From Pseudomonadales bacterium (GTDB taxonomy: Bacteria > Patescibacteriota > Microgenomatia > UBA1400 > PJMF01): DNA of 64,000 nt. Within the stretch, counting starts at the first letter, position 1. Each line of letters starts with the position of its first letter. A model generated the notes under the pieces. That model did no database searches, was not told the DNA's origin, and saw only the letters and a list, made by a program, of their open reading frames with translations. Below are positions 9,829 through 52,036 of the stretch, piece after piece. The stretch lies in contig JACKFW010000001.1 of NCBI GenBank assembly GCA_020632265.1, positions 218,981-282,980 of the forward strand, in the 5' to 3' direction. The translations under genes were made by a program, and so were the position numbers.

Positions 9829-11520
9829 ATGTCTCTGCCTGACGAAAAATTAAAAAAACTCATCTTAAAAGCTGGAATCATTTCTAAAATTGATTTGCCT
9901 AAAATATCTCGATATGCAAAACGAGAAAACCTTACTTTAGAAGAAGCAATTATCAAAAAAGAGTTAATTACAGATTCTGATCTTGGCGTACTGATTGCTA
10001 GTAATTTAAAAATTCCTTTTGTTGATTTGTCTAAAATTGAACTAAATAATGAACTTTTATCAATAATTCCCGAAAGAATTGCCCATACCAGAAAAATAAT
10101 TGTTTTTGGAAGAGATGATAAAACTGTTAAAGTTGCCCTTTCTGATCCAGAAAATATTGAGTTATTAAAGATGATTGCTCATAAAACTGGTTTAGAGGTC
10201 TCGGTATATTATGCAACCAATAAAGATCTTGAAAAATCATTTATCCACTATAAAACTGATTATCAACAACTTTTTGAAAAACTTTTAAAAGAAGATAGAG
10301 CTCAAATAATTACAACAGTTGCGTATGATCCTCCAGTTAGAAAAATGGTTGATCTTTTGGTGGCCACTGCTTATCGAGAGAATGCCTCCGATATTCATAT
10401 AGAACCTAAAAAAAATAATTTTTTAATTAGATTTAGAATTGATGGAATTTTGCGTGACATGGCAACATTGCCCAAAGAAATTCATGAACGTGTTGTGACA
10501 AGAATAAAGGTCATGTCTAGATTAAGAATTGATGAACATTTTTCTTCTCAAGATGGAAAAATTTCAACTCAGGTGGATAATGAAAATTTGGATTTACGTA
10601 TCTCAATTCTTCCAATTGCAGATGGTGAAAAGATAGTCATACGTTTATTAGCTTCAAAATCCAATTTTTTCTCATTATCGGAACTTGGCATGAATGAGTC
10701 GGATCTAATGAAAGTTACTAAGGCATTCCAAAGTTCTTTTGGAATGATTATTTGCACGGGACCAACGGGATCTGGAAAAACAACAACAATTTATACGGTA
10801 ATCAAAAACATTAACACTAGAGACGTCAACATTACATCAATCGAAGACCCAATTGAATATAGAATTCAGGGTGCAAATCAAGTTCAAGTCAATGAAAAAA
10901 CAAACCTAACATTTGCAAATGGACTAAGATCTATCTTAAGACAAGATCCAGACAAAATTTTCGTCGGAGAAATACGAGATTCAGAAACTGCTAATATTGC
11001 TGTCAATGCTGCCCTAACAGGTCATTTAGTTCTTTCAACACTTCACACTAACAACGCAGCAACAGCCCTACCACGTCTTTTTGACATGGATGTTGAACCA
11101 TTTTTAGTTGTCTCCACAGTCAATTTAATTATCGCCCAGCGTCTAGTAAGAAAGATTTGTCAACACTGTAAAATTAGTAAAAAAACTCCAATGGCTGAGT
11201 TCTCAAAATTTTTCTCAAAAGAAATAATTAATAAATATTTTAAGTCAAATGGAAAAACTAATGAAATTGAAACATTCATGGGTAAAGGTTGCAGATTTTG
11301 TCATGACAGTGGATATTCTGGTCGAATTGGAATATACGAAATATTAGAAGTTAATGACAAAAATAAAGACTTAATTGCCTCAAAAGCTAGTGCTGAAGAC
11401 ATTGAGAATCAAGCAATAAAAGATGGTATGACGACAATGATTGACGACGGTGTTCAAAAAATTAAAGACGGTATGACGACAATGGAAGAAGTATTTAGAG
11501 TTACATCTGTTGCCAAATAA
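9829..11520 (+). CDS. pilB: Type IV pilus assembly ATPase PilB (GspE family).
   Basis: Walker A GPTGSGKTT, Asp box, His box LSTLHTNNAA. The N-terminal GSPII_E N-domain is about 150 aa. Length 563 aa. Confidence 0.9.
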   Translation: MSLPDEKLKKLILKAGIISKIDLPKISRYAKRENLTLEEAIIKKELITDSDLGVLIASNLKIPFVDLSKIELNNELLSIIPERIAHTRKIIVFGRDDKTVKVALSDPENIELLKMIAHKTGLEVSVYYATNKDLEKSFIHYKTDYQQLFEKLLKEDRAQIITTVAYDPPVRKMVDLLVATAYRENASDIHIEPKKNNFLIRFRIDGILRDMATLPKEIHERVVTRIKVMSRLRIDEHFSSQDGKISTQVDNENLDLRISILPIADGEKIVIRLLASKSNFFSLSELGMNESDLMKVTKAFQSSFGMIICTGPTGSGKTTTIYTVIKNINTRDVNITSIEDPIEYRIQGANQVQVNEKTNLTFANGLRSILRQDPDKIFVGEIRDSETANIAVNAALTGHLVLSTLHTNNAATALPRLFDMDVEPFLVVSTVNLIIAQRLVRKICQHCKISKKTPMAEFSKFFSKEIINKYFKSNGKTNEIETFMGKGCRFCHDSGYSGRIGIYEILEVNDKNKDLIASKASAEDIENQAIKDGMTTMIDDGVQKIKDGMTTMEEVFRVTSVAK

Positions 11521-40086: not shown

Positions 40087-41142
40087 ATGATTCCATTTCT
40101 AATTGCATTATTATCAAGCTTTATTATTACTCCGATAATTATTAGTATTTATACCAAAAAAAATTGGTTAGATAATCCTATTCAAACTATTCATGTAAAA
40201 AAAACTCACTCAAAGCCTATTCCTAGAGGAGGAGGTTTAGTAATTTTTTTTGGGATTCTTGTAACATCTTTGATATTTTTACAATTTGATCAGCATTTAA
40301 TTGCAATTTTTATAGGAGCATTTTTATTAACTCTAGTTGGTACGTTGGATGATATTTATGATCTGCATCCAGCAATTAGGCTAGCTACCGGGCTAGTGGC
40401 GTCCCTCATTGTAGTTGGTTCTGGTATTGGAGTAGCATATATTACAAATCCTTTTGGACCTGGAGTAATTCATTTAAATCAACCTCAAATTTTACTAAAT
40501 TTATTTGGTACAACAAAATCAATTTGGGTATTAGCTGATATTTTTGCTTTATTTTTTATCATCTGGAATATGAATATTGTTAATTGGTCAAAAGGAGTTG
40601 ATGGACAAATGCCAGGATTTGTTAGTATCGCATTAATTTTTATTGGAATATTGTCAACGAGGTTTATAGATGATCCAACACAATTTAACACAGCCTATCT
40701 ATCTTTTATTGTTGCAGGAGCATTTGCTGGATTATTAATTTGGAATTGGTACCCTCAACGAATTTTGCCCGGTTATGGAGCTGGTTCATTAGCAGGATAC
40801 TTCCTTGCAATTCTAGCCATTCTTTCGGGTGCAAAAATTGCCACAGTTTTTATGGTATTAGGTTTACCTACTGCAGATGCAATTTTTACAATTATGAGAA
40901 GAATAATCGCTGGCAAATCACCTCTTTGGGGTGATCGTGGTCACATGCATCACAAAATGCTGGATGTTTTAAAATGGGGACGACGCAGAATTGCAGTTTT
41001 TTATTGGGCAAGTAGTTTTTTTCTTGGATTTTTATCGCTGTACTTGAATACTTCTGGAAAGTTAGTTACAATGTCAATAGTTTTTATTTTAGTTTTTGGC
41101 TTTTTAATTTGGGTTAAGATAAATAAAAAAGGATTAAGATAA
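40087..41142 (+). CDS. Polyprenyl-phosphate N-acetylhexosamine-1-phosphate transferase (WecA/MraY/WbcO family, GT4).
   Basis: NMNIVNWSKGVDGQMPG resembles NxxNxxDGxDG. C-terminal GDRGHMHHKMLDV resembles the DRxHxHH motif of WecA/TagO. Ten to eleven TM segments. Confidence 0.75.
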   Translation: MIPFLIALLSSFIITPIIISIYTKKNWLDNPIQTIHVKKTHSKPIPRGGGLVIFFGILVTSLIFLQFDQHLIAIFIGAFLLTLVGTLDDIYDLHPAIRLATGLVASLIVVGSGIGVAYITNPFGPGVIHLNQPQILLNLFGTTKSIWVLADIFALFFIIWNMNIVNWSKGVDGQMPGFVSIALIFIGILSTRFIDDPTQFNTAYLSFIVAGAFAGLLIWNWYPQRILPGYGAGSLAGYFLAILAILSGAKIATVFMVLGLPTADAIFTIMRRIIAGKSPLWGDRGHMHHKMLDVLKWGRRRIAVFYWASSFFLGFLSLYLNTSGKLVTMSIVFILVFGFLIWVKINKKGLR

Positions 41143-41156
41143 AAATTATTCATAAT

Positions 41157-42137
41157 ATGATCAGCATTCCTTTAAAAAAACCCTTTAATCAATCATTCGT
41201 ATATCTTGTTGCTAAAACCGCTAGACCACAACAATGGATAAAAAATCTAGCACTTTACGCAGCGTTAGTATTTTCTGGATTTTTTTTCTACCATCCGGCA
41301 GGAGAACCTTCATATTTTATGACGGTATCTTATGCATTTGTAGTTTTTAGTATTCTCACTTCAAGTATTTATTTTATAAATGATATTGTTGATTTTGAAT
41401 CTGACAAGCAACATCCTTTCAAAAAGAAAAGACCCATTGCGTCTGAATTGCTTAGCAGAAGTTCAGCCCTGAAGATTTCTTTACTTGGTCTATTTTTAGT
41501 TTTTATTTTATCAACTGGTTTAGCGCTATTTTTCAGAATCTTACTTCTAGCATATTTTTTACTTCAAATATTGTATTCCAAAAAACTCAAACATATTCCT
41601 ATCATTGATGTTGTTTCCATTGCCTCAGGGTTTTTGATAAGAATATATGCAGGAGCGGTTGTCATTAATCTTCATATGAGTGTTTGGTTTTTACTCACAG
41701 TGGTTTCTGCTTCATTATTTTTAGCAGTTGGAAAAAGACAGAGCGAAAGAACTTTGTTGGGAAATGAAAGTAATATTGGAACGACTCGACAATCTCTCAA
41801 ACGCTATAGCCAAAGACTTCTTGACCAGTATACTGGAATGTTTGCAAATGCTACTTGGCTCACTTATGCTCTCTTTGCATTTCAAAATGAAATCAGTGCA
41901 CCTAGACAAAAAATAGAATTAATTTACACATTCTTGCCCAAAGCACTTCACTCTCAAAAACTTTTAATGCTCACTATACCATTTGTAATTTTTGGCGTCA
42001 TGAGATATCTACAACTTGTCTACGAAAACAACCAAGGAGAATCACCTGAAAAAGTACTTTTAAACGATAAACCACTTTTAATCACGGTTGGATTATTTGG
42101 TGCAATAGTAATGTTTGTTACCTATATCCTAACTTAA
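41157..42137 (+). CDS. UbiA-family prenyl/phosphoribosyl transferase, decaprenyl-phosphate phosphoribosyltransferase (DPPR synthase)-like.
   Basis: YFINDIVDFESDKQHPFKKKRPIAS has the Asp-rich motif NDxxDxExD followed by HPxKxxRPIA, as in the Rv3806c-type subgroup. Eight to nine TM segments. Confidence 0.55.
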   Translation: MISIPLKKPFNQSFVYLVAKTARPQQWIKNLALYAALVFSGFFFYHPAGEPSYFMTVSYAFVVFSILTSSIYFINDIVDFESDKQHPFKKKRPIASELLSRSSALKISLLGLFLVFILSTGLALFFRILLLAYFLLQILYSKKLKHIPIIDVVSIASGFLIRIYAGAVVINLHMSVWFLLTVVSASLFLAVGKRQSERTLLGNESNIGTTRQSLKRYSQRLLDQYTGMFANATWLTYALFAFQNEISAPRQKIELIYTFLPKALHSQKLLMLTIPFVIFGVMRYLQLVYENNQGESPEKVLLNDKPLLITVGLFGAIVMFVTYILT

Positions 42138-42140
42138 ATT

Positions 42141-43493
42141 ATGAAGAAATTTGTTTCAAAGTACTACCCTCAATTATTACTGATAATTTTAGCCTTCTCA
42201 TTTTTTACTCGAATTTATAATCTTCACTTACCAGAAAAATATGTCTTTGATGAAGTCTACCATGCTGTGACAGCTAAATTAATTGCCGACAACAATCCAA
42301 TGGCATTTGAATGGAATAACACACCACCAGAACCCAATACTGCCATAGATTGGTTGCATCCTCCAATTGCAAAATATACTCAAGCTCTATCAATGAATTT
42401 ACTTTCAAAGAATTCATTTGGCTGGAGATTTAGCTCGGCAATCTTTGGAGTAATTGCAATTTTTTTAACAGCCAAACTTGCATATAATCTTTTTCATTCT
42501 AAATCGGTTGCATTAATTGCGGCACTTATAACATCATTGGATGGTTTGGTCCTAACAATGTCTAGAATTGCTATGAATGACATCCATGTAACAGTGTTCA
42601 TCCTCATGACTTTAAACTTCTATATTATTTATCTAAATACAAAGAGAACCGATAAAAAATTTCTTTTCTTTTCTGCAGCTTTTTCAGGAATAGCCATGGG
42701 CACAAAATGGTCTGGATTTTTTGCCTTAATAATAATCGGATTTTTTGAAACCATTAATTTACTTATAACTTTTTTTCATCGAGAAAAAATGGAAAAATTA
42801 AGTACAAAAATTCGCACATTTTTTAAAGAATTTTTATTTTTATTTACTTTGTTAATTATTTTACCCGGAACAATTTACATACTTTCATATAGTCAAATGT
42901 TTTTACAAGGAAAGAACTTCAATCATTTTATTGGATTGCATAAGAATATCTGGTCATATCAAACATCTCTTGTTGCTACCCACCCCGCACAATCAAAACC
43001 TATTGAATGGTTCTTAAACACTAAACCTGTTTGGATTTATGCTAATTGGCAAACAAATAAACGAGCAGATATATATGCTGTCGGTAATCCTATTCTTTTC
43101 TGGATTTCAGACATCTTTGTATTTATTAGTTTAATTTACAGTATATTTATTATTAAACACTATTATCAATCTAAAAAAATTGATTCAAAAAACTTAAATT
43201 TTTTACATTTAATAATTATGTATTTCGCTGTCTGGATTCCTTGGCAGTTTTCTCCCAGAATAATGTTCTTCTATCACTATCTCCCAGCAGTACCATTGCT
43301 TTGTATAAATACAGCCTACTGGCTAAATAAAATGATGCAAAAATCAAAGAATCAAAAAAAACTAGCAATATTAATTATCATGAGTTTTCTGATTACATTT
43401 ATAATTTGGTATCCTCATTGGACAGGCATATTTGTATCAGATGAGCTAAAAGAGTCCTTGTATTTTGCGCTTGATTCTTGGCAGCAAAAATAA
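42141..43493 (+). CDS. GT-C fold glycosyltransferase, GT39 (PMT-like)/ArnT-like.
   Basis: Loop-1 motif YVFDEVYHAV, as in the PMT DE motif FDEVHF. Polytopic, 450 aa. Confidence 0.55.
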   Translation: MKKFVSKYYPQLLLIILAFSFFTRIYNLHLPEKYVFDEVYHAVTAKLIADNNPMAFEWNNTPPEPNTAIDWLHPPIAKYTQALSMNLLSKNSFGWRFSSAIFGVIAIFLTAKLAYNLFHSKSVALIAALITSLDGLVLTMSRIAMNDIHVTVFILMTLNFYIIYLNTKRTDKKFLFFSAAFSGIAMGTKWSGFFALIIIGFFETINLLITFFHREKMEKLSTKIRTFFKEFLFLFTLLIILPGTIYILSYSQMFLQGKNFNHFIGLHKNIWSYQTSLVATHPAQSKPIEWFLNTKPVWIYANWQTNKRADIYAVGNPILFWISDIFVFISLIYSIFIIKHYYQSKKIDSKNLNFLHLIIMYFAVWIPWQFSPRIMFFYHYLPAVPLLCINTAYWLNKMMQKSKNQKKLAILIIMSFLITFIIWYPHWTGIFVSDELKESLYFALDSWQQK

Positions 43494-43501
43494 ATTAATT
43501 T

Positions 43502-44200
43502 TTAATTCCAATATTCAGGATATTCATTTAGAATATTATTAATTTCTTCGTTATCTGCATTTGGAATTAATGGTAAATAATTGTGCAAATGAATTTTATC
43601 CTGAGCAAATAATATCACAACTTTATTAATAAATTTTTGAATTATTTTAACATTATCGATATTTTTAATACAAATTAGATTATCAATCAAAGAATTTGAA
43701 TGTTGGCTACTTAAATCAGATTGCCGATTTATTCTAATATTGAGATTTCCTAAATTAAATTTTTTTTGGAAGAACATTTTTTTGGCAACTGTTACACTTT
43801 TTATAGCTTCTAAAGGAAGTAAAGTAATTTTATAACTAAGCGGAAACTTCGTAGTAATATTGATAATTTTGTCAGAACTAATAATACATATATTCTTCAT
43901 CCAAATAGATTTCAACCACCACCATCCCAAAAATAAAATAAGCGAAGAAATCGCTGTGATAAATAGATTCACTGCTTCTAAATTTTTGATTATAAAATAT
44001 TTACTCAGTACCTTCACAAAATAATATCCAAAATTTAAAAATATAAACGAGAAAAAAAACAATAATGCTCTTTTTAAATTCAAATAAGCTTTGCTTTGCC
44101 TAAATACATATAAGATTGACTCATTTTCATATTGATAGGGAAAATTATAACTGTATGGAAAACTAAATGATTCAGTTAAAATAATATTTTTCTTTTTCAT
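43502..44200 (-). CDS. Membrane protein with two N-terminal TM helices and a possible bacterial PH-like (YdbS/YdbT-type) domain.
   Basis: Hydrophobic segments LLFFFSFIFLNFGYYFV and ITAISSLILFLGWWWL are followed by a soluble domain. The start is 1 nt after the stop of the helicase-nuclease gene. Confidence 0.3.
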   Translation of the reverse strand: MKKKNIILTESFSFPYSYNFPYQYENESILYVFRQSKAYLNLKRALLFFFSFIFLNFGYYFVKVLSKYFIIKNLEAVNLFITAISSLILFLGWWWLKSIWMKNICIISSDKIINITTKFPLSYKITLLPLEAIKSVTVAKKMFFQKKFNLGNLNIRINRQSDLSSQHSNSLIDNLICIKNIDNVKIIQKFINKVVILFAQDKIHLHNYLPLIPNADNEEINNILNEYPEYWN

Positions 44201-44201
44201 A

Positions 44202-47200
44202 TTATTTTTGATTTAAAAAACCTAGCTCCCTGATCTCCCTCATTACTTCAATAATTACGACTTTTAGGTCTTCTACTGCTTGAGTTGAAATAGTAAATTG
44301 TCTCTGTATGTGCTTTTCGTCACCATTGCTAGAAATTGATGGCTCAACAAAATCAAAAACAGCCTGAGCTACATTGTATTTAAATGTTTTATCAAGCATA
44401 GTGAGCAATTTATAAAATACTAATTGTCGCTTATACCTACCTCTAATGGTTTCGGGAAGTTTAAGCTCTCTGTCTGAATAATCATCAATATATGTTTTTC
44501 CCTCAATTTGAGCATCTGTTTTTGACTTTCCAGTTTTATAATGAATAATTCTGACCAACTTATTATCAGCATCAATTAAATCTACTCTATCAATTCTTCC
44601 TGATAATTTAATTTCATTTTCAGCATCCATTAAAACTGCTTTACAAAAATTACCACCAAAATACCTTTCAATAAATAATGGTTTTGATACATTGTTTTTA
44701 ATTTCTTCATAATAAAAGCTTAGAACTTTAATGCCTCTTTCTTTTCTTTCTTCAAAATCTAATGACGATAGATTTTCATTTTTTAATGATCTCATAAAAT
44801 CATTTTGAAATTCTGTCAAACTAATAACTTGATTATTAATTGTAAATTTTTTATAAAATTGTTCTAAAGCATAATGAACTGAGGTTCCAAAAGACATAAC
44901 AGGATTTTTTTCTCTAGGAACCCTCAACAATGTATTTAGTATAAATTCATTTTTATCTTTCAAATAATTATTGAGAGCAGTAACTGACATCTTAAATTCG
45001 CTAACCAGCTGTCTAAAAAATTCAATTTCTAAGTCAGTTGAAGAAGTTCCATCAGCTGTCACTTGAAGCATTTCTTCTATTAACTTTTCTGCTTTAACAT
45101 TCAATTTATCTTTATAATTTGAGTCAACAACTGTGATGAAGTCCGCTATTTCTTTTATGAACATACTCATTATGAGTTCACGATTTTTTCCACCAGAAAT
45201 CTTTGTCTGAGGGTAAGAAATAAAAACTTGTTTTTTGGCTCTTGTAATTGCAACGTAGAATAATCGGCGATCATCTTCATTTTTTTCTTTTTTTGAAATA
45301 TCAGTATTAGTTAAAATATGCGTTGGAAGAGGAATCATATCCCGTTTCTGTTTATTTCCCCATTTTTTATCAACACAATTTAAAATAAAAACATACTGCC
45401 ATTCTTGACCTTTGGCCTTATGAACTGTTGACAATTTAATTCGCCCACGAGCAATATTTAACATTTCAGTTTTAAGAACAATGTTATGCTCTCGCATTAT
45501 CTGAATATTCAACAAAAATTTACTTAAATTTAATTCAACATCCTGAGAAAGGGTTTGCTTGATATGAGAGAACAAAGTATTTAATGCAATTAAGTGATTA
45601 ACTTTCGTTGGTTTTGACAAAATATTATCCAAGAATCCAAAGCCACTTTTATCATTTTCTTGTACATCAGGCTTCTGATCGTCCCAATCTTTTGATATAA
45701 AATTTGAATTAATTACTAAACTAAACCACTTATTAAATAAAAGATTGTGACTATTTTTTTGCCAATAAATTAATTTGTCCCTAAATTCAACTATTTTTTC
45801 AAATTCATGCTGATTAAGATCATACTTTTTGTCTAAATTTTCATATTTTGTGCTGATAATCGTAAATATTTCTTCTTTTTCTTTAGCTGCTATTCTCGCA
45901 ACTTTCATGACAGTTAAACTATCTAAATTTATCCAATCAAACATCATTACTTCAAAAATTAAATCCGTTTCACTACCATTGGAAATTCCATTAATAACTT
46001 TAAAAAGTTTTAATAATTGAATAATTAACTTGTCCTTAAGAGCATTGTCCGCACTGTTTGAATCATGAACCACATTCTCTTTTTCCAATATTTCACTAAT
46101 CTCTAAAGAATCGGAATTATCTTTATACAAAACTGCAATTTCTTCTGGATTGACTCCGAGTTTAATTAATTTTTTTATTTCCTCAACTACAAAAAGTTTC
46201 TCTGTAAAAGATGAATTTGCTTCAAAAAGTCTAATTGGATCATTTTGATTGTTTACACTTTTTAATCTTGTTAGTAGCGAAGTTTTAATAGTTTTATCAG
46301 TAAATTGATTTACGGAATTATTTGAAAAATTTATTCCCAACTCATTATTTTCAATTAAATTATGAGCGGCGTCATAAATTATCTGGCTACATCGATATCC
46401 AGTTTGAAGAGTAATTACTTTTGCATTTGGATATTTATTTACAAATCCCAACATATTTTCCACCGAAGCACCTTGAAACCGATAAATTGATTGATGTGGA
46501 TCACCAACGACAAAAATATTAGGCTGATTATCCTGATCCGTGCACAATAAATCCACAATTTTATTTTGAGCAGAATTTGTATCTTGATATTCGTCAACTA
46601 ATACATACTGAAATTTCTCTTTGTAATCTAATAAAATTTCTTCATCTTTTTCGAATATCTCAACTATTAGAGAAATCATATCGTCAAAATCAAATCTTAA
46701 ATTAGCTCTTAATTCTGCTTCATACTTTACATATAGCAAATATAATTCCTTTTGCTTATTTAAATCTTTTGTTCTTTTAATTTTTTGAACTTTTTTTAAA
46801 TCATCAATTTCATTTTCTAAAATTTCTTCTTCAGCATTTAAAATACTTTCAAACTTTTCCAAACTTATATTTTCTCTTTTTAAATTTGAAATTTGAGAAA
46901 TAATATCTTTTAAATAACAGAGTGGATTGTTTAAAGGCTTAAGTATCTGTAAATTTGTCTCAAAAATAATTTTTTCAAATATTTCAAATCTCTCAATATC
47001 TGATAATGGTTTACTTCCTCTATCAATTGGAAACTTGTCCGGATATTGAGCAATTACTTCACTTGCAAAAGAATGAAAAGTACTGATTGCAACGTAGTAA
47101 CCTTCATTACCGATCATTTCAACAATACGCTCCCGCATATTTTTTGCAGCTGCCTCAGTAAAAGTAAGAGCTAAAATATTTGAAGGATCTACATCCTGAA

Positions 47201-47378
47201 TTTTTAAAATATTTGCAATTCTACTTGCTAAAACTTGAGTTTTACCGGTACCAGGTCCTGCAATCACCATTACTGGTCCTTCGATAGAATCAACTGCAAC
47301 TCTTTGGTCTGAATTGAGCTTTTGGTAGATGGAGGCGAAATTTTTGTATTCCTGCATTAAATGTCTAAGTAAAGCCAA
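44202..47378 (-). CDS. UvrD/PcrA/AddA-like SF1 helicase fused to a C-terminal RecB-family PD-(D/E)xK nuclease domain (1058 aa).
   Basis: Helicase motifs: Q (LNSDQRVAV), I (AGPGTGKT), II (VDEYQDTN), III (VGDPHQSIYRF), IV (GYRC), V (TVHKAKGQEWQYVFIL), VI (RRLFYVAITRAKKQVFISY). C-terminal nuclease motifs: GRIDRVDLID, IIHYKTGKS, YKRQLVFYKLL. Confidence 0.8.
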   Translation of the reverse strand: MALLRHLMQEYKNFASIYQKLNSDQRVAVDSIEGPVMVIAGPGTGKTQVLASRIANILKIQDVDPSNILALTFTEAAAKNMRERIVEMIGNEGYYVAISTFHSFASEVIAQYPDKFPIDRGSKPLSDIERFEIFEKIIFETNLQILKPLNNPLCYLKDIISQISNLKRENISLEKFESILNAEEEILENEIDDLKKVQKIKRTKDLNKQKELYLLYVKYEAELRANLRFDFDDMISLIVEIFEKDEEILLDYKEKFQYVLVDEYQDTNSAQNKIVDLLCTDQDNQPNIFVVGDPHQSIYRFQGASVENMLGFVNKYPNAKVITLQTGYRCSQIIYDAAHNLIENNELGINFSNNSVNQFTDKTIKTSLLTRLKSVNNQNDPIRLFEANSSFTEKLFVVEEIKKLIKLGVNPEEIAVLYKDNSDSLEISEILEKENVVHDSNSADNALKDKLIIQLLKLFKVINGISNGSETDLIFEVMMFDWINLDSLTVMKVARIAAKEKEEIFTIISTKYENLDKKYDLNQHEFEKIVEFRDKLIYWQKNSHNLLFNKWFSLVINSNFISKDWDDQKPDVQENDKSGFGFLDNILSKPTKVNHLIALNTLFSHIKQTLSQDVELNLSKFLLNIQIMREHNIVLKTEMLNIARGRIKLSTVHKAKGQEWQYVFILNCVDKKWGNKQKRDMIPLPTHILTNTDISKKEKNEDDRRLFYVAITRAKKQVFISYPQTKISGGKNRELIMSMFIKEIADFITVVDSNYKDKLNVKAEKLIEEMLQVTADGTSSTDLEIEFFRQLVSEFKMSVTALNNYLKDKNEFILNTLLRVPREKNPVMSFGTSVHYALEQFYKKFTINNQVISLTEFQNDFMRSLKNENLSSLDFEERKERGIKVLSFYYEEIKNNVSKPLFIERYFGGNFCKAVLMDAENEIKLSGRIDRVDLIDADNKLVRIIHYKTGKSKTDAQIEGKTYIDDYSDRELKLPETIRGRYKRQLVFYKLLTMLDKTFKYNVAQAVFDFVEPSISSNGDEKHIQRQFTISTQAVEDLKVVIIEVMREIRELGFLNQK

Positions 47379-47454
47379 AAATTTATAAACTGATTAATTA
47401 TTTTGATTCTTGGACTATATTTTTTCTAATTATTTTAGTTTTCAATCTCCTGAT

Positions 47455-48633
47455 CTAATTTTTATCTGCCAACTTTTTTAGTTGTTCATGTCCTTCATCT
47501 AATAATTCCAGTTGCTTTATAGTTGGCAAGCTACCGCCAATAATTCCTTGTAAATCTCCATACATACTAGAGGTACTTAAAATAACCTTTTCGATTTCTT
47601 TTTCTCGTTTACTCCAAATTCTTGAAAAAGATCTTTTCTCCGTTTCTAAATCCTGCTTCATATTCACAAAGGCCATTACAATATTTTCTATACGATTTTT
47701 GAACTGAGCTCCAGACAGATATTTATATAACATGTTCATTTTTTCATCTCTACCAACCAAAGATTGCTTAACTTTTGCAACTTCAATTAATTGAATACGC
47801 AATGCGTTTACCAACGGAATAATATAGGCATAAGAAACAATCCAAACACCATTTCTCAAACCAAATCCTTTAATATCTTCGGGAAAAATTTGAGTGACCA
47901 AAATTGCAATATCTGCTTTAACTAAACCTTGATCACTCTTGAGTTTGGAGATCCAACTTTCACTAAATGCCTTAGTATTTTTTGATTCCCAAATGATTGT
48001 TCCATCATGACTGCCAATTTTTGCATTGACTTTTTGTACTAAATCAGCGCCTTTAGCTCCAGTTGCAACATCACTAATTTCATCAGTTACAAATCTGGAA
48101 ATTAACAATGCTTTCAAATCATCTTCTTGAACTTCTCCTTGAATTTGTTGCGAACCCTGCTCCGCCTTTCTCTTCAACTCATTAATAGTTTTATTAAGCA
48201 TCTCCATTTGCTTATCTTTTTCTTGAATTTTAAAACGATATTGCTCTTCTTCAAACTTTTTAGTTGACTCAATAATTTTTTTTCGCTCTTCATCCATTTT
48301 TCGAGCCATTTCTAATTCAAAAGTTTTTTCTTTTGCTTCAAGTTCGCGAGCTTTTTTTCTTAGTTCCAATTCAAATTTTTCTGCTTCTTCAAGCTTTTGA
48401 GAGTTTATTTTTAATTCCTCTCTCAACTCCTTTAATTCTTTTGCTTGTAGATTTTTTTTAAGTAAATTCTCCTTTTCAAATTTTTCACTAGCCTTCTCTT
48501 GAGCAAGTTTCCATAATCTTTTTTTCTCAAGAGCAAGTTCTTCATCAAACTTATGTTTCATTTGTTCTGAAAGTGCTTTGCTTAGTGGAATTAATTTACC
48601 GCAATCTGGACATTTAATTTGTTGATCTGTCAT
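47455..48633 (-). CDS. Zn-ribbon, long coiled-coil and C-terminal PD-(D/E)xK-like domain protein (DUF2130-like).
   Basis: N-terminal IKCPDCGKLIP, then approximately 150 aa of E/K-rich heptad coiled coil. C-terminal ...GAKGADLVQKV...GTIIWESKNTK fits the D...(E/D)xK nuclease core. Confidence 0.45.
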   Translation of the reverse strand: MTDQQIKCPDCGKLIPLSKALSEQMKHKFDEELALEKKRLWKLAQEKASEKFEKENLLKKNLQAKELKELREELKINSQKLEEAEKFELELRKKARELEAKEKTFELEMARKMDEERKKIIESTKKFEEEQYRFKIQEKDKQMEMLNKTINELKRKAEQGSQQIQGEVQEDDLKALLISRFVTDEISDVATGAKGADLVQKVNAKIGSHDGTIIWESKNTKAFSESWISKLKSDQGLVKADIAILVTQIFPEDIKGFGLRNGVWIVSYAYIIPLVNALRIQLIEVAKVKQSLVGRDEKMNMLYKYLSGAQFKNRIENIVMAFVNMKQDLETEKRSFSRIWSKREKEIEKVILSTSSMYGDLQGIIGGSLPTIKQLELLDEGHEQLKKLADKN

Positions 48634-48638
48634 AAAGA

Positions 48639-48893
48639 TTATTTCTTTCTTGAATTTTCTCTTTCAAATTCTAAGCGACTTATTTTTCTATCAACCATTG
48701 ATCTTTTTGTTTGATACAAGTTTCCAAGAGTGGAATCAGCAGCATACTGAGCTCGAACAAGTTTTTTTCTTTCTTCTAATGCTTTCTTATACTTTAAATT
48801 TATATCCGAAACTTTTTTTTGAGCAAAAGTTTGTGACTTAGTCATAGTTAAGTCACTTTTAGGTCTAGATAACAGATTTTTTAACAAATTCAT
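48639..48893 (-). CDS. Small basic helical protein (84 aa), first gene of the putative operon.
   Basis: K/R-rich with no recognised family. Its stop is 5 nt before the next start. Confidence 0.3.
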   Translation of the reverse strand: MNLLKNLLSRPKSDLTMTKSQTFAQKKVSDINLKYKKALEERKKLVRAQYAADSTLGNLYQTKRSMVDRKISRLEFERENSRKK

Positions 48894-49089
48894 AACTTGT
48901 CTAGTATATCAAAATCCAACACCTAAATATCATACAATTAACGTAAGACTTAAAATGTATGGTATTTTTGATATATAAAAATCTGATAGTGAATTTAAAT
49001 AAAATTTAGTTTACTATAAATTATAGAAAAAACCCAAAACACTTTTTGTAACAAACTACAAACAATTAGTACTAACTAAAAGGAAAGAT

Positions 49090-50145
49090 ATGACAAAAAA
49101 ATCCAAAACAAATAATCCATCTGAGGAAGTCAAAGAACAGAGCGCAAAGAATCAAGCTGTTTCAATTGCAATGCAACAAATTGAAAAAGAATTTGGAAAA
49201 GGGTCTATTATGAAAATGGGCGACTCTTTAAAGAATATGGCCACAGTGCCTGTGATTTCTACTGGATCGCTCTCTTTAAACCTAGCGCTGGGAATAGGTG
49301 GTTTTCCAATAGGAAGAATCGTTGAAGTTTATGGTCCAGAAGCTTCTGGAAAAACCACCCTTTGTCTTCACGCTATTGCCGACGTTCAACAAAAAGGAGG
49401 AGTAGCAGCATTTATTGATGTTGAACATGCTTTAGACCCAATTCGAGCTCAAAAAATCGGTGTTAATCTTGAAGAAATGCTAATTTCTCAACCAGATTAT
49501 GGCGAACAAGCTTTGGAAATTGCCGAAACTTTAATTAGATCTGGTGGTGTTGGAATAGTAGTTATCGATTCCGTAGCCGCTCTCGTACCAAAATCTGAAA
49601 TAGAAGGAGAAATGGGTGATCATCAAATGGGAACTCAAGCTAGATTGATGTCTCAAGCGATGAGAAAACTTACTGCAGCCATTAGTAAAACCAAAACCCT
49701 AGTGATTTTTACAAATCAAATCAGACATAAAATTGGCGTGATGTTTGGAAGTCCAGAAACAACTACTGGAGGAAACGCTCTAAAGTTCTACGCATCTCAA
49801 AGATTAGATATTAGAAAAATTGGAAATATTCAAGAAGGTGATCAAATCGTTGGCACTAGACATAGAGTAAAAGTCAAAAAAAATAAATTAGCTCCTCCAT
49901 TTCAAATTGCAGAATTTGATATGGATGATAGTGGTATTTCAATTACGGGCGATGTTGTAGATATTGCTTCTAGAGAAAACATTATACAAAAAGCCGGTAG
50001 CTTTTATAAATATAATGGTGAAGTATTAGCTCAAGGGAGGGAAGCAACTAAACAATATCTCAAAGAAAATCCTCAATTCATGAAAAAAATTAGAAAAGAA
50101 ATTTGGGACTCCATTAAAACTGGAGCCCACAAGATAGAAGAATAA
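49090..50145 (+). CDS. recA: Recombinase RecA.
   Basis: [17 protein letters not shown] Walker A. Full RecA core and L1/L2 regions. SD AAAGGAAAG. Length 351 aa. Confidence 0.95.
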
Positions 50146-50455: not shown

Positions 50456-52036
50456 ATGTCATTTTTTGGAAATTTATCAACCTTGTTTGGAAATCAAACA
50501 AAGGGTCCAAGGCCTGTTTTAAACAACACACGGCCTGATCAAACTGGAAAAAAACATAAAAAAGTCAGTAAAAAACCTCAAAAGCTTGAGGAAAAATCAG
50601 TAGTAAGTAGAGTCCAAATGCAAGATTTTGAACAAATGAAGCGAGATGCTCAATCAAAAGCTCGCGAAATTGTTGTCGAAGCAAAAGCCGAAGCCCTTGC
50701 AATTAGAAGTAAAGCTGAAAATGAATCAAGAGAGATTGCTAAAAATGCGGAACAATCACAAAGAAATCTAGAAAAACAATTGGACAGAGTTGAATCCAAG
50801 TTAGAGTGGATTGCAAAAAGAGAAGAAAATCTAACTGAACAGAGAAACAACATTCAAGAACTAAAAACTGAAATTGAAAAAGAGAAAAATAAAGTAATTA
50901 AGAAACTAGAAGAAGTTTCGCAACTTACTATTGACGAAGCAAAAGATATTCTTTTTGAAAGATTGGAAACCAAACTCAGTAAGGATATGGCTCAATTTAT
51001 AAGACAAAAAGAGGAAATTGCCGAAACTGAGGCAGATGAAAAAGTTAAAGAAATTCTTGTCGATGCCATGAAGCATGGGGCTACCGATTACGTTTCCGAA
51101 TATACAGTTTCTGTAGTTGAAATCCCTTCAGAAGATACCAAGGGAAAGATTATTGGAAAATCAGGTAGAAACATCAATGCTTTTGAGAGACGTACGGGAG
51201 TAGATGTTGATCTAGACATGTCTCCAACCGAAGTAAGATTGTCATGCTTTGATCCTGTCAGAAGGGAAATTGCCAGAATTTCTTTAGAGAAATTAATAAA
51301 AGATGGAAGAATTCAACCAACTAGAATTGAAGAAATCGTAGATAAAGTAGAACAAGACATTGCAAAGGTTACTTTAGAAGCTGGTAAGCAACTTTGCCAT
51401 GATGTTGGAGTTTACAATTTGCCAATAGAGTTGATGAGAATGCTAGGAAAATTTAAATATCGTTTCTCATATGGTCAAAATTTAATTGCTCACACTTTAG
51501 AAGAAACAAAAATCGGCATTAAAATTGCTCATGAACTCAATTTAGATGTCAAAATTGTTAAACTTGGTTGCTTGCTACATGATATTGGAAAGGTTTCTGA
51601 AGAAGTTGAAGGAAGTCACGTCGAGCTTGGTGTTAAAATTGCAAAAAAATTCAATCTGCCACAATCAGTGATAGATTGTATTGCTCAACATCATGAAGAT
51701 GAACCATTCTCAGGACCAGAACAAATGGCGGTTTATATTGCCGATGCAATTTCAGGTGCAAGACCTGGCGCTAGATATGAAAATCATGAGGAATATGTTC
51801 AAAGATTGCAAAAACTGGAAGATATTGCTATGGAATATAAGCAAGTAAAACAAGCTTATGCAATTCAAGCTGGAAGAGAAATTCGAGTTTTACTTGAACC
51901 TGAAAAATCTAAAGATAGTGATGTAAAAGTCCTAAGCTTGAAAATTAGAGATGAAATAAAAGAATCTGTTACCTATCCTGGAACGGTTACTGTCACAGTT
52001 ATTAGAGAAACAAGAGGACAAGAAGTAGCAAAATAA
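50456..52036 (+). CDS. rny: Ribonuclease Y.
   Basis: N-terminal TM/coiled coil. KH domain IGKSGRNINAFERRTGVDV. HD domain GCLLHDIGK. SD AAGGAG. Length 526 aa. Confidence 0.9.
   Translation: MSFFGNLSTLFGNQTKGPRPVLNNTRPDQTGKKHKKVSKKPQKLEEKSVVSRVQMQDFEQMKRDAQSKAREIVVEAKAEALAIRSKAENESREIAKNAEQSQRNLEKQLDRVESKLEWIAKREENLTEQRNNIQELKTEIEKEKNKVIKKLEEVSQLTIDEAKDILFERLETKLSKDMAQFIRQKEEIAETEADEKVKEILVDAMKHGATDYVSEYTVSVVEIPSEDTKGKIIGKSGRNINAFERRTGVDVDLDMSPTEVRLSCFDPVRREIARISLEKLIKDGRIQPTRIEEIVDKVEQDIAKVTLEAGKQLCHDVGVYNLPIELMRMLGKFKYRFSYGQNLIAHTLEETKIGIKIAHELNLDVKIVKLGCLLHDIGKVSEEVEGSHVELGVKIAKKFNLPQSVIDCIAQHHEDEPFSGPEQMAVYIADAISGARPGARYENHEEYVQRLQKLEDIAMEYKQVKQAYAIQAGREIRVLLEPEKSKDSDVKVLSLKIRDEIKESVTYPGTVTVTVIRETRGQEVAK

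Follow-up and report, generated by a model that had tools for sequence, protein, structure and literature searches.

Two genes encoding PD-(D/E)xK nuclease domains, set within a tight run of four minus-strand genes next to recA, raise the question of whether such a locus is a dedicated system, for defense or for specialized repair, or a set of neighbors kept together by the general gene order of the lineage. The locus lies on contig JACKFW010000001.1, in a 64-kb stretch (referred to here as the window, to which all coordinates apply unless a relative is named) of a genome assigned to the Microgenomatia. A first-pass annotation, made from the sequence alone, had proposed that the four genes form one module, and the four open reading frames (ORFs), with gaps of 5, 76, and 1 nt between them, were confirmed. 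In order, they encode an 84-aa small basic protein (small84), a 392-aa protein of the DUF2130 family, a 1058-aa helicase with a nuclease domain, and a 232-aa membrane protein. Two independent read-based assemblies contain all four genes with 100% identity. From the gene content, domains, folds, synteny, and presence/absence patterns observed here, we conclude that the locus is probably an ordinary recombination and repair neighborhood of the core chromosome of Microgenomatia and not a dedicated multigene system.

An apparently partnerless helicase-nuclease in the core synteny of the lineage

The anchor of the locus appears to be the 1058-aa protein, probably a lineage-wide, partnerless helicase-nuclease that combines an AddA/AdnB-like single-chain architecture with a PcrA-related motor. 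Matches to the Pfam families UvrD-helicase (PF00580; E value, 5.5e-71), UvrD_C (PF13361; E value, 9e-29), and, over residues 797 to 1050, PDDEXK_1 (PF12705; E value, 9.4e-16) bear out the first-pass description of a UvrD-type helicase with a C-terminal RecB-family nuclease. All helicase motifs are intact, with AGPGTGKT as Walker A and DEYQD as motif II. Among solved structures, the best relatives of the motor were PcrA (PDB 1pjr; E value, 5.6e-60) and UvrD, with a match covering residues 18 to 767, followed by AdnB (3e-22) and AddA (4e-18). No curated equivalog model in NCBIfam for AddA, RecB, PcrA, or UvrD was passed, however: the PcrA model TIGR01073 gave 296 bits against a cutoff of 911, uvrD gave 226 against 1144, addA_Gpos gave 110 against 708, addA_alphas gave 123 against 861, and recB gave 126 against 696. 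With both AddA models so far below their cutoffs, the idea that the protein might simply be the canonical AddA was not supported.

More than 7800 homologues of the helicase were detected, and the best 120 were all patescibacterial and of the same 1000- to 1100-aa architecture. Relatives are usually annotated as "ATP-dependent helicase/PcrA" or, by JGI, as "DNA helicase II / PcrA." These names, together with the PcrA and UvrD matches and a mutated nuclease motif III in this genome (see below), would fit a protein that serves as the PcrA or UvrD of the lineage, that is, as an accessory helicase in replication and repair that removes RecA filaments, the nuclease domain being degenerate or structural and the neighboring genes unrelated. 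We consider this very improbable, given a score that falls well short of the PcrA cutoff and the strict retention of nuclease motifs I to IV by 118 of 119 homologues, which shows that the nuclease is under selection in this helicase family.

The nuclease motifs could be aligned over 16 orthologues as GTxxHxxLE, GRIDRVD, (V/I)DYKTGK, and QLxFYKxL. All three motifs named in the first-pass annotation (GRIDRVD, HYKTGK, and QLVFYKLL) are indeed present, but the second of these cannot be taken as a normal RecB motif, since the catalytic Asp is replaced by His (His946). Motif III thus reads IIHYKTG here and (V/I)DYKTG in the homologues; Asp occupies the position in 118 of 119 database homologues and in all 16 syntenic orthologues, and His was found in this protein only. 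A separate Logan assembly (L001) has the His946 sequence as well.

The first-pass annotation had remarked on the lack of an AddB or RecC partner beside this AddA-like enzyme. That remark held up within the window and in the flanks of relatives. No paralogue of the helicase-nuclease, be it of the motor or of the nuclease domain, was found anywhere in the window; the Pfam-annotated neighbors of the helicase in six related loci included no other UvrD-helicase or PDDEXK_1 gene, and none recurred as a neighbor in the clustered DUF2130 loci described next.

Synteny was followed in 80 DUF2130-encoding loci, all from Patescibacteria, onto which nine local proteins of the window were mapped and in which all neighbors were clustered. 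Six loci encoding helicases of 45 to 46% identity were looked up in addition; these were picked nonrandomly, from contigs absent from the top 120 DUF2130 hits, and are biased accordingly. Of the 80 DUF2130 loci, 16 carried the helicase, and all of these belonged to the closest clade. Wherever the contig suffices, gene order in this clade is the same: recA, followed by RNase Y, diverges from small84, DUF2130, and the helicase, which in turn converge on the genes for PMT, UbiA, and a MraY-like protein. recA is 74 to 92% identical in the syntenic loci. Over a total of 21 related Microgenomatia loci, the position of the helicase is fixed in the order SecG-RNase Y-recA, a variable interval, and helicase-PMT-UbiA-MraY-like. 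Five of the helicase loci (L084/85, L086, L098, L099, and L100) keep this same block without DUF2130, which identifies the helicase as an anchored core gene. In these five, the interval is occupied by genes for small membrane proteins, a Zn-ribbon protein, UDG, or GIY-YIG proteins. In the sixth look-up, from a member of the Roizmanbacteria, the helicase lies beside GIY-YIG, sigma-70, DnaG, and RecF-like genes.

The helicase probably functions in recombinational repair or in the processing of DNA ends or forks. Its motor would unwind DNA in the 3'-to-5' direction, with trimming of the displaced strand left to the C-terminal nuclease, and RecA would thereby be fed. The recA gene is indeed located just upstream of, and divergent from, the four genes, as the first-pass annotation had said, and we judge that annotation to have been right in its caveat that the locus could represent plain recombinational repair next to recA.

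The small basic protein probably acts together with the helicase. The 84-aa product, correctly described on first pass, belongs to a small family of conserved basic helical proteins, the aligned members of which keep the motifs PxSFGxKR and ER(K/Q)KLxRAxYA; no Pfam, NCBIfam, PADLOC, or PHROG match was found for it. Homologues are located directly upstream of DUF2130 in 13 loci. A small84 hidden Markov model (HMM) also matched an ORF at the start of the helicase gene in L099 (E value, 1.8e-6), where the two overlap, and in L098 (E value, 9e-5), where they abut. Since both loci are without DUF2130, small84 appears to go with the helicase and not with DUF2130, and in some genomes it may be translationally coupled to the helicase. 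Placement of DUF2130 between the two is limited to one subclade and could reflect either insertion there or loss elsewhere.

A putative nuclease of the DUF2130 family in the recA-helicase interval

The 392-aa protein is a clear member of DUF2130 (PF09903; E value, 7e-62; 209.4 bits against a threshold of 26.7), with residues 135 to 377 covering profile positions 4 to 252 of 255, and 30 of 30 aligned homologues match the family as well. Its AlphaFold model (pLDDT, 77.8 overall and about 90 in the catalytic domain) consists of a beta-hairpin (residues 5 to 16), an uninterrupted helix (17 to 180), an alpha/beta domain (185 to 292), and a helical bundle (297 to 365). The alpha/beta domain has the alpha-beta-beta-beta-alpha-beta core of PD-(D/E)xK enzymes, in which beta2 opens with an Asp and beta3 holds (D/E)xK. 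The nuclease-like D...ESK core that had been read from the sequence was thereby substantiated by both the profile match and the modeled fold, and the nuclease fold on which the first-pass proposal depended is present. DUF2130 has already been catalogued in the PD-(D/E)xK superfamily, as family 109 and with no function assigned (Steczkiewicz et al. 2012; PMC3424549). In the searchable literature, mentions of DUF2130, COG4487, or PF09903 are scant, and none of them is functional.

Invariant in 30 homologues are C8-P-x-C11, E170, D197, and W215-E-S-K-N-T220. The N terminus had been annotated as a CPDC zinc ribbon, an assignment that did not survive, as only the CxxC pair is invariant and four ligands were not found: 41 of 118 DUF2130 homologues have a second ligand pair, H-x3-H, which is H..D here, and matches of this region to Pfam zinc-ribbon and UBZ families were below threshold. 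By its sequence, this N terminus is a knuckle or a UBZ-like finger rather than a four-Cys ribbon. The coiled coil of approximately 150 aa that had been proposed to follow it was modeled as a single helix of ~164 aa; its coiled-coil nature is presumed, with weak matches to coiled-coil-type sequences (Rad50, E value of 0.17; LmuB, E value of 7.8e-4). The LmuB match, from PADLOC (15.7 bits), spans this helix and was dismissed as compositional. Homology to RmuC was rejected as well, with an hhalign probability of 0.1% against E. coli RmuC and no RmuC (PF02646) match in Pfam scans at an E value of ≤10, leaving an architectural analogy alone. We regard the protein as probably a dimeric DNA endonuclease that would recognize DNA structures or ends independently of the helicase, and its gene as a stand-alone one that occupies the variable recA-helicase interval in one subclade, the present genome included.

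No recurrent neighbor and no helicase partner was found for the approximately 55 DUF2130 loci that fall outside this clade, which come from Peregrini-, Gracili-, Parcu-, Uhr-, Magasanik-, Nealson-, and Saccharibacteria. Neighbors sampled there included RecQ-Fic, a type IIG methyltransferase, an OLD-family ATPase, FtsZ, GlmS, and MutL. DUF2130 was seen beside an OLD-family AAA_15-TOPRIM protein (L068, 8173-9999) and an N6_Mtase/Eco57I type IIG protein (L095, 6358-8316), and likewise beside an AAA_15/AAA_21 ATPase or a RecQ-Fic pair (L059, 1850-3454; L092, 2250-5028); none of these pairings with defense-like or DNA transaction genes is widely recurrent. An apparently recurrent neighbor of ~608 aa turned out not to be one family, as it comprised unrelated GlmS, MutL, OLD-family ATPase, UPF0259, and RecQ proteins.

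DUF2130 was also found, full length and alone, on 46 plasmids, mostly conjugative replicons of Bradyrhizobium and Mesorhizobium, with neighboring genes for ParA, relaxase, DUF736, and RelE/HTH or toxin-antitoxin proteins, and in seven Helicobacter heilmannii prophage records, where it adjoins a ParA fragment. Examples are genes in Mesorhizobium pMLa (L089, 268052-269347), in H. heilmannii (L090), and in a Bradyrhizobium plasmid (L091), all with 29 to 37% identity. The family therefore has mobile members. IMG/VR yielded two matches among 2.9 million viral contigs.

Is the pairing of two nucleases functional?

Small84, DUF2130, and the helicase might jointly process double-strand-break ends as a lineage-specific repair module, in which DUF2130 would be the second nuclease, as AddB or AdnA is elsewhere, and, in the present genome, would also compensate for His946. 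Several observations are in keeping with this. The three genes are codirectional, with gaps of 5 and 76 to 97 nt, and adjoin recA; DUF2130 immediately precedes the helicase in 10 loci, and in 4 more it lies one to three genes away; both proteins have PD-(D/E)xK domains; the Asp-to-His change in motif III is confined to this genome; and in a Peregrinibacteria lineage DUF2130 lies near RecQ, another recombination helicase. We nevertheless consider a joint module unlikely. The adjacency of DUF2130 and the helicase cannot be separated from general synteny, since the block conserves unrelated envelope genes just as well. In the five relatives named above, the helicase has no DUF2130 beside it; elsewhere the pair is interrupted by inserted genes (Nudix, ABC-F, and argG/argH, in L003, L006, L010, and L053), and no helicase lies within 10 kb of DUF2130 in L004 and L005. 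Conversely, the ~55 outside loci, the 46 plasmids, and the 7 prophage records have DUF2130 without such a helicase. An apparent DUF2130-helicase fusion in L008 (an ORF of 1189 aa) proved to be an artifact spanning a run of N (around 9990-10094).

A bolder version, in which the three proteins would make up, in a subclade of Microgenomatia, an undescribed two-nuclease machine for DNA-end processing, appears quite improbable to us. Here, a DUF2130 dimer, held together through the long helix and the CxxC knuckle, would act in the manner of AddB or AdnA and, in this genome, would have taken over from the His946 site. If this were true, DUF2130 would gain a first function, and bacteria of the candidate phyla radiation (CPR) an identified apparatus for double-strand-break resection.

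Some points do weigh against the ordinary repair neighborhood that we favor. In the subclade, small84, DUF2130, and the helicase are codirectional and tightly spaced, so that a lineage-specific functional coupling may exist; the genes may also be cotranscribed. The altered motif III leaves room for the neighboring DUF2130 nuclease to matter in this genome. The label "housekeeping" reflects gene order and distribution among relatives rather than an inventory of the whole 1.08-Mb genome, and the searchable literature holds no experimental study of this helicase family or of DUF2130.

A membrane protein and the question of defense

The last of the four genes starts 1 nt after the helicase stop codon, as had been noted, and its product is best seen as a rare, probably lineage-specific add-on. 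That it is a membrane protein was upheld by two transmembrane helices, modeled at residues 37 to 68 and 74 to 100. The bPH domain suggested for it fared less well: the bPH_3 match gave 14.1 bits against a cutoff of 23, and the support is transitive, coming from distant homologues (P0256, P0258, and P0259) that carry bPH_2/bPH_3 domains over the stretch aligned to the 232-aa protein. A single-sequence AlphaFold2 (AF2) model (pLDDT, 44) was uninformative beyond the transmembrane helices. The family is rare, with 22 representatives among 1.84 billion proteins, and a word-indexed homologue search returned the query itself only. Among about 16 syntenic loci, two (L006 and L010) have a homologue, at 28 to 29% identity; none was detected in the five loci without DUF2130, and in most relatives the helicase gene directly abuts PMT with no such gene in between.

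Helicase-plus-nuclease combinations are a theme of antiphage and antiplasmid defense, and the locus had been likened to Gabija, Hachiman, and Nhi-like systems, a reading in which the membrane bPH protein would be the sensor or effector. The helicase does match GajB and DRT helicase models in PADLOC, at 1e-72 to 2e-69; defense nucleases, namely, Can2, McrC, NucC, the nuclease domain of DdmD, and SPARDA, are among the structural neighbors of the DUF2130 nuclease domain; DUF2130 is occasionally adjacent to defense-like genes, such as those for the OLD-family ATPase and the type IIG methyltransferase mentioned above, and is found on plasmids and in prophage records of Helicobacter; and the recA-helicase interval is a variable slot beside a tRNA gene in relatives. 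Even so, we consider a role in defense extremely unlikely. The PADLOC matches cover the generic UvrD motor only, for which PcrA scores higher in NCBIfam, and neither the other three proteins nor the two isolated nuclease domains gave a meaningful match there. The likeness to Gabija thus dissolved into GajB-model matches on the motor, and no GajA, HamA, or other partner gene was found at the locus. Hachiman did not fit either, the motor being of the superfamily 1 (SF1) UvrD type and no HamA or HamB match appearing for the other three proteins or, among the 25 listed of its 47 PADLOC matches, for the helicase. As for Nhi, the domain order is reversed here, the motor is SF1A, and no Nhi model was among the best 25 of the 47.

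Distribution argues in the same direction. Throughout the order, the helicase keeps its place in core synteny and is not island borne, contrary to what a location in a variable island would have led one to expect. DUF2130 is 73 to 77% identical to its nearest relatives, versus 50 to 51% for the helicase, 56% for PMT, and 85 to 90% for RecA, so that its conservation is at the level of a core gene, unlike that of fast-evolving defense genes. The 232-aa protein is almost never present; no PHROG match was found, and viral contigs are nearly devoid of DUF2130, as described above. Moreover, the four genes form a contiguous block in this genome only, the nearest approach being L006, which has all four, with a Nudix gene inserted; the co-occurrence elsewhere that a module would call for was thus not found. 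With a block unique to one genome, DUF2130 and the membrane protein gene both optional, and PADLOC matches limited to the motor, the proposal of a four-gene module for defense or specialized repair could not be maintained.

Gene calls, flanking sequences, and the recA leader

The coordinates of all features are collected in Table 1. With its TTG start codon, the helicase is 1058 aa long; NCBI and Logan calls use an ATG at 47357, which yields 1051 aa and widens the gap to DUF2130 from 76 to 97 nt. GC content in the window is low (about 0.27 to 0.34), with no anomaly of composition at the four-gene locus relative to the window, and no tRNA gene and no Rfam family at the gathering threshold were found in the whole window. 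Mobile-element boundaries around the locus were considered and rejected, as the flanking repeats are AT-rich chance repeats only and the window is without a tRNA gene.

Table 1. Positions of the four genes, their domains and residues of interest, and context features in the window and in relatives
Feature	Position	Strand	Basis or remark
84-aa small basic helical protein (small84 family)	48639..48893	minus	ORF
392-aa DUF2130 protein (PF09903, COG4487)	47455..48633	minus	ORF, Pfam
CxxC knuckle C8-P-x-C11 of DUF2130 protein	48601..48612	minus	Invariant in 30 homologues
Long single helix of DUF2130 protein, residues 17-180, presumed coiled coil	48094..48585	minus	AF2 secondary structure
PD-(D/E)xK core of DUF2130 protein, residues 185-292	47758..48081	minus	Putative catalytic D197, E216, K218 (WESKNTK)
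1058-aa SF1A UvrD/PcrA-type helicase with C-terminal RecB-family nuclease	44202..47378	minus	ORF, Pfam
PDDEXK_1 nuclease domain of helicase	44229..44990	minus	PF12705 and motif alignment
His946 codon (CAT) in place of catalytic Asp, nuclease motif III (D-Y-K)	44541..44543	minus	Sequence read
232-aa protein, two transmembrane helices, putative bPH-like domain	43502..44200	minus	ORF
recA, context gene and anchor of conserved synteny	49090..50145	plus	ORF, RecA Pfam annotation
RNase Y	50456-52036	plus	Flanking gene
MraY-like, UbiA, and PMT family genes	40087-43493	plus	Flanking genes
Divergent intergenic region, 196 nt, between 84-aa gene and recA	48894..49089		
tRNA-Pro(GGG) in relatives	L011 2085-2159; L013 6653-6727; L018 2621-2695; L086 3717-3791; L098 5088-5163		
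small84 homologues in relatives	L099 5736-6008; L098 5867-6001		small84 HMM

In the 196-nt region between the 84-aa gene and recA, no Rfam family was found and no palindrome common to relatives was seen. A shared SOS/LexA-type operator for recA and the 84-aa gene was accordingly rejected, with no palindrome common to 22 recA upstream regions, and a recurrent GC-rich dyad, CGCA-N5-TGCG, was discarded as an operator as well, since it lies inside the tRNA-Pro(GGG) gene of relatives. A conserved AAAAACCCAAAAC box is located on the recA leader side, at about 49027-49040; in the form AAAAACCCAAA(A/G)C, roughly 19 of 22 related recA leaders share the box, some 50 nt ahead of recA. For the 10-mer AAAACCCAAA, five occurrences were counted in the window (at 49029-49038 and at 2724, 18038, 38524, and 59144), versus 0.67 expected.

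In many relatives, the tRNA-Pro(GGG) gene borders the recA-helicase slot, in divergent orientation next to recA; it is absent from the window and from the closest relatives, L003 and L006. What the slot carries differs by genome and includes genes for UDG, GIY-YIG, and a Zn-ribbon protein, with inserts of up to about 8 kb.

Many of the patescibacterial metagenome-assembled genomes compared here (L006 to L010, L013, L017, P0001, and others) are publicly labeled "Pseudomonadales," "Gammaproteobacteria," or "Bdellovibrionales." These labels, including the "Pseudomonadales" of the source genome, look like taxonomic or binning mislabels, with gene content and nearest relatives being those of CPR bacteria; for the source genome, homologues point to a place among the Woesebacteria and Pacebacteria, within the Microgenomatia.

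Significance and comparison with known systems

As found, the locus matters little by itself, and the points that remain would not surprise a specialist. Patescibacteria appear to rely on a partnerless UvrD-type helicase with a RecB-family nuclease beside recA, often coupled to a small basic protein, and this helicase is a candidate for their DNA-end-processing enzyme. DUF2130 is a widespread putative nuclease that is conserved at a housekeeping level here yet is also found on conjugative plasmids. The Asp-to-His change in the nuclease active site of the helicase, unique to this genome, is of residual value.

Among defense systems, Gabija shares with the locus the helicase-plus-nuclease theme and a UvrD motor that GajB models recognize. 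It differs in that GajA, an OLD-family ATPase-TOPRIM protein, is not present at the locus, that GajB is about 500 to 600 aa long without a nuclease domain, and that the helicase gene here is core and syntenic. Hachiman combines the SF2 helicase HamB with the nuclease HamA, whereas the helicase here is of the SF1 UvrD type. In Nhi, one polypeptide carries both a nuclease, at its N terminus, and an SF1B-type helicase.

For the DUF2130 protein, a full member of DUF2130/COG4487 with the invariant D...ExK, the family itself is the closest comparison; what sets this case apart is its unusually high conservation and its place between the small-protein and helicase genes. The architecture resembles that of RmuC (YigN in E. 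coli), a recombination-limiting protein in which a PD-(D/E)xK domain follows a long coiled coil at the N terminus and which is likewise encoded by a stand-alone gene; the N terminus of RmuC is a membrane anchor, in contrast to the CxxC knuckle of the DUF2130 protein.

Finally, the helicase finds its nearest counterparts in two groups. PcrA, UvrD, and Rep provide the best sequence and solved-structure matches to its motor, but the helicase has an extra nuclease domain of ~260 aa in comparison with PcrA and UvrD. With AddA, AdnB, and RecB it shares an SF1A UvrD-like motor followed, in one chain, by a C-terminal RecB-family PD-(D/E)xK nuclease, the motifs GxxxHxxLE, GxIDRxD, DYK, and QLxxY, a size of about 1000 to 1200 aa, and a gene beside recA. 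Unlike these proteins, it has no second subunit nearby, its motor resembles PcrA/UvrD more than AddA, and its motif III is HYK instead of DYK, so that the D/E-x-K signature is not intact; the curated AddA and RecB models gave 110 to 126 bits against cutoffs of about 700 to 860. Both nuclease-bearing proteins of the locus are members of families catalogued before, and the synteny of the lineage accounts for their being adjacent.

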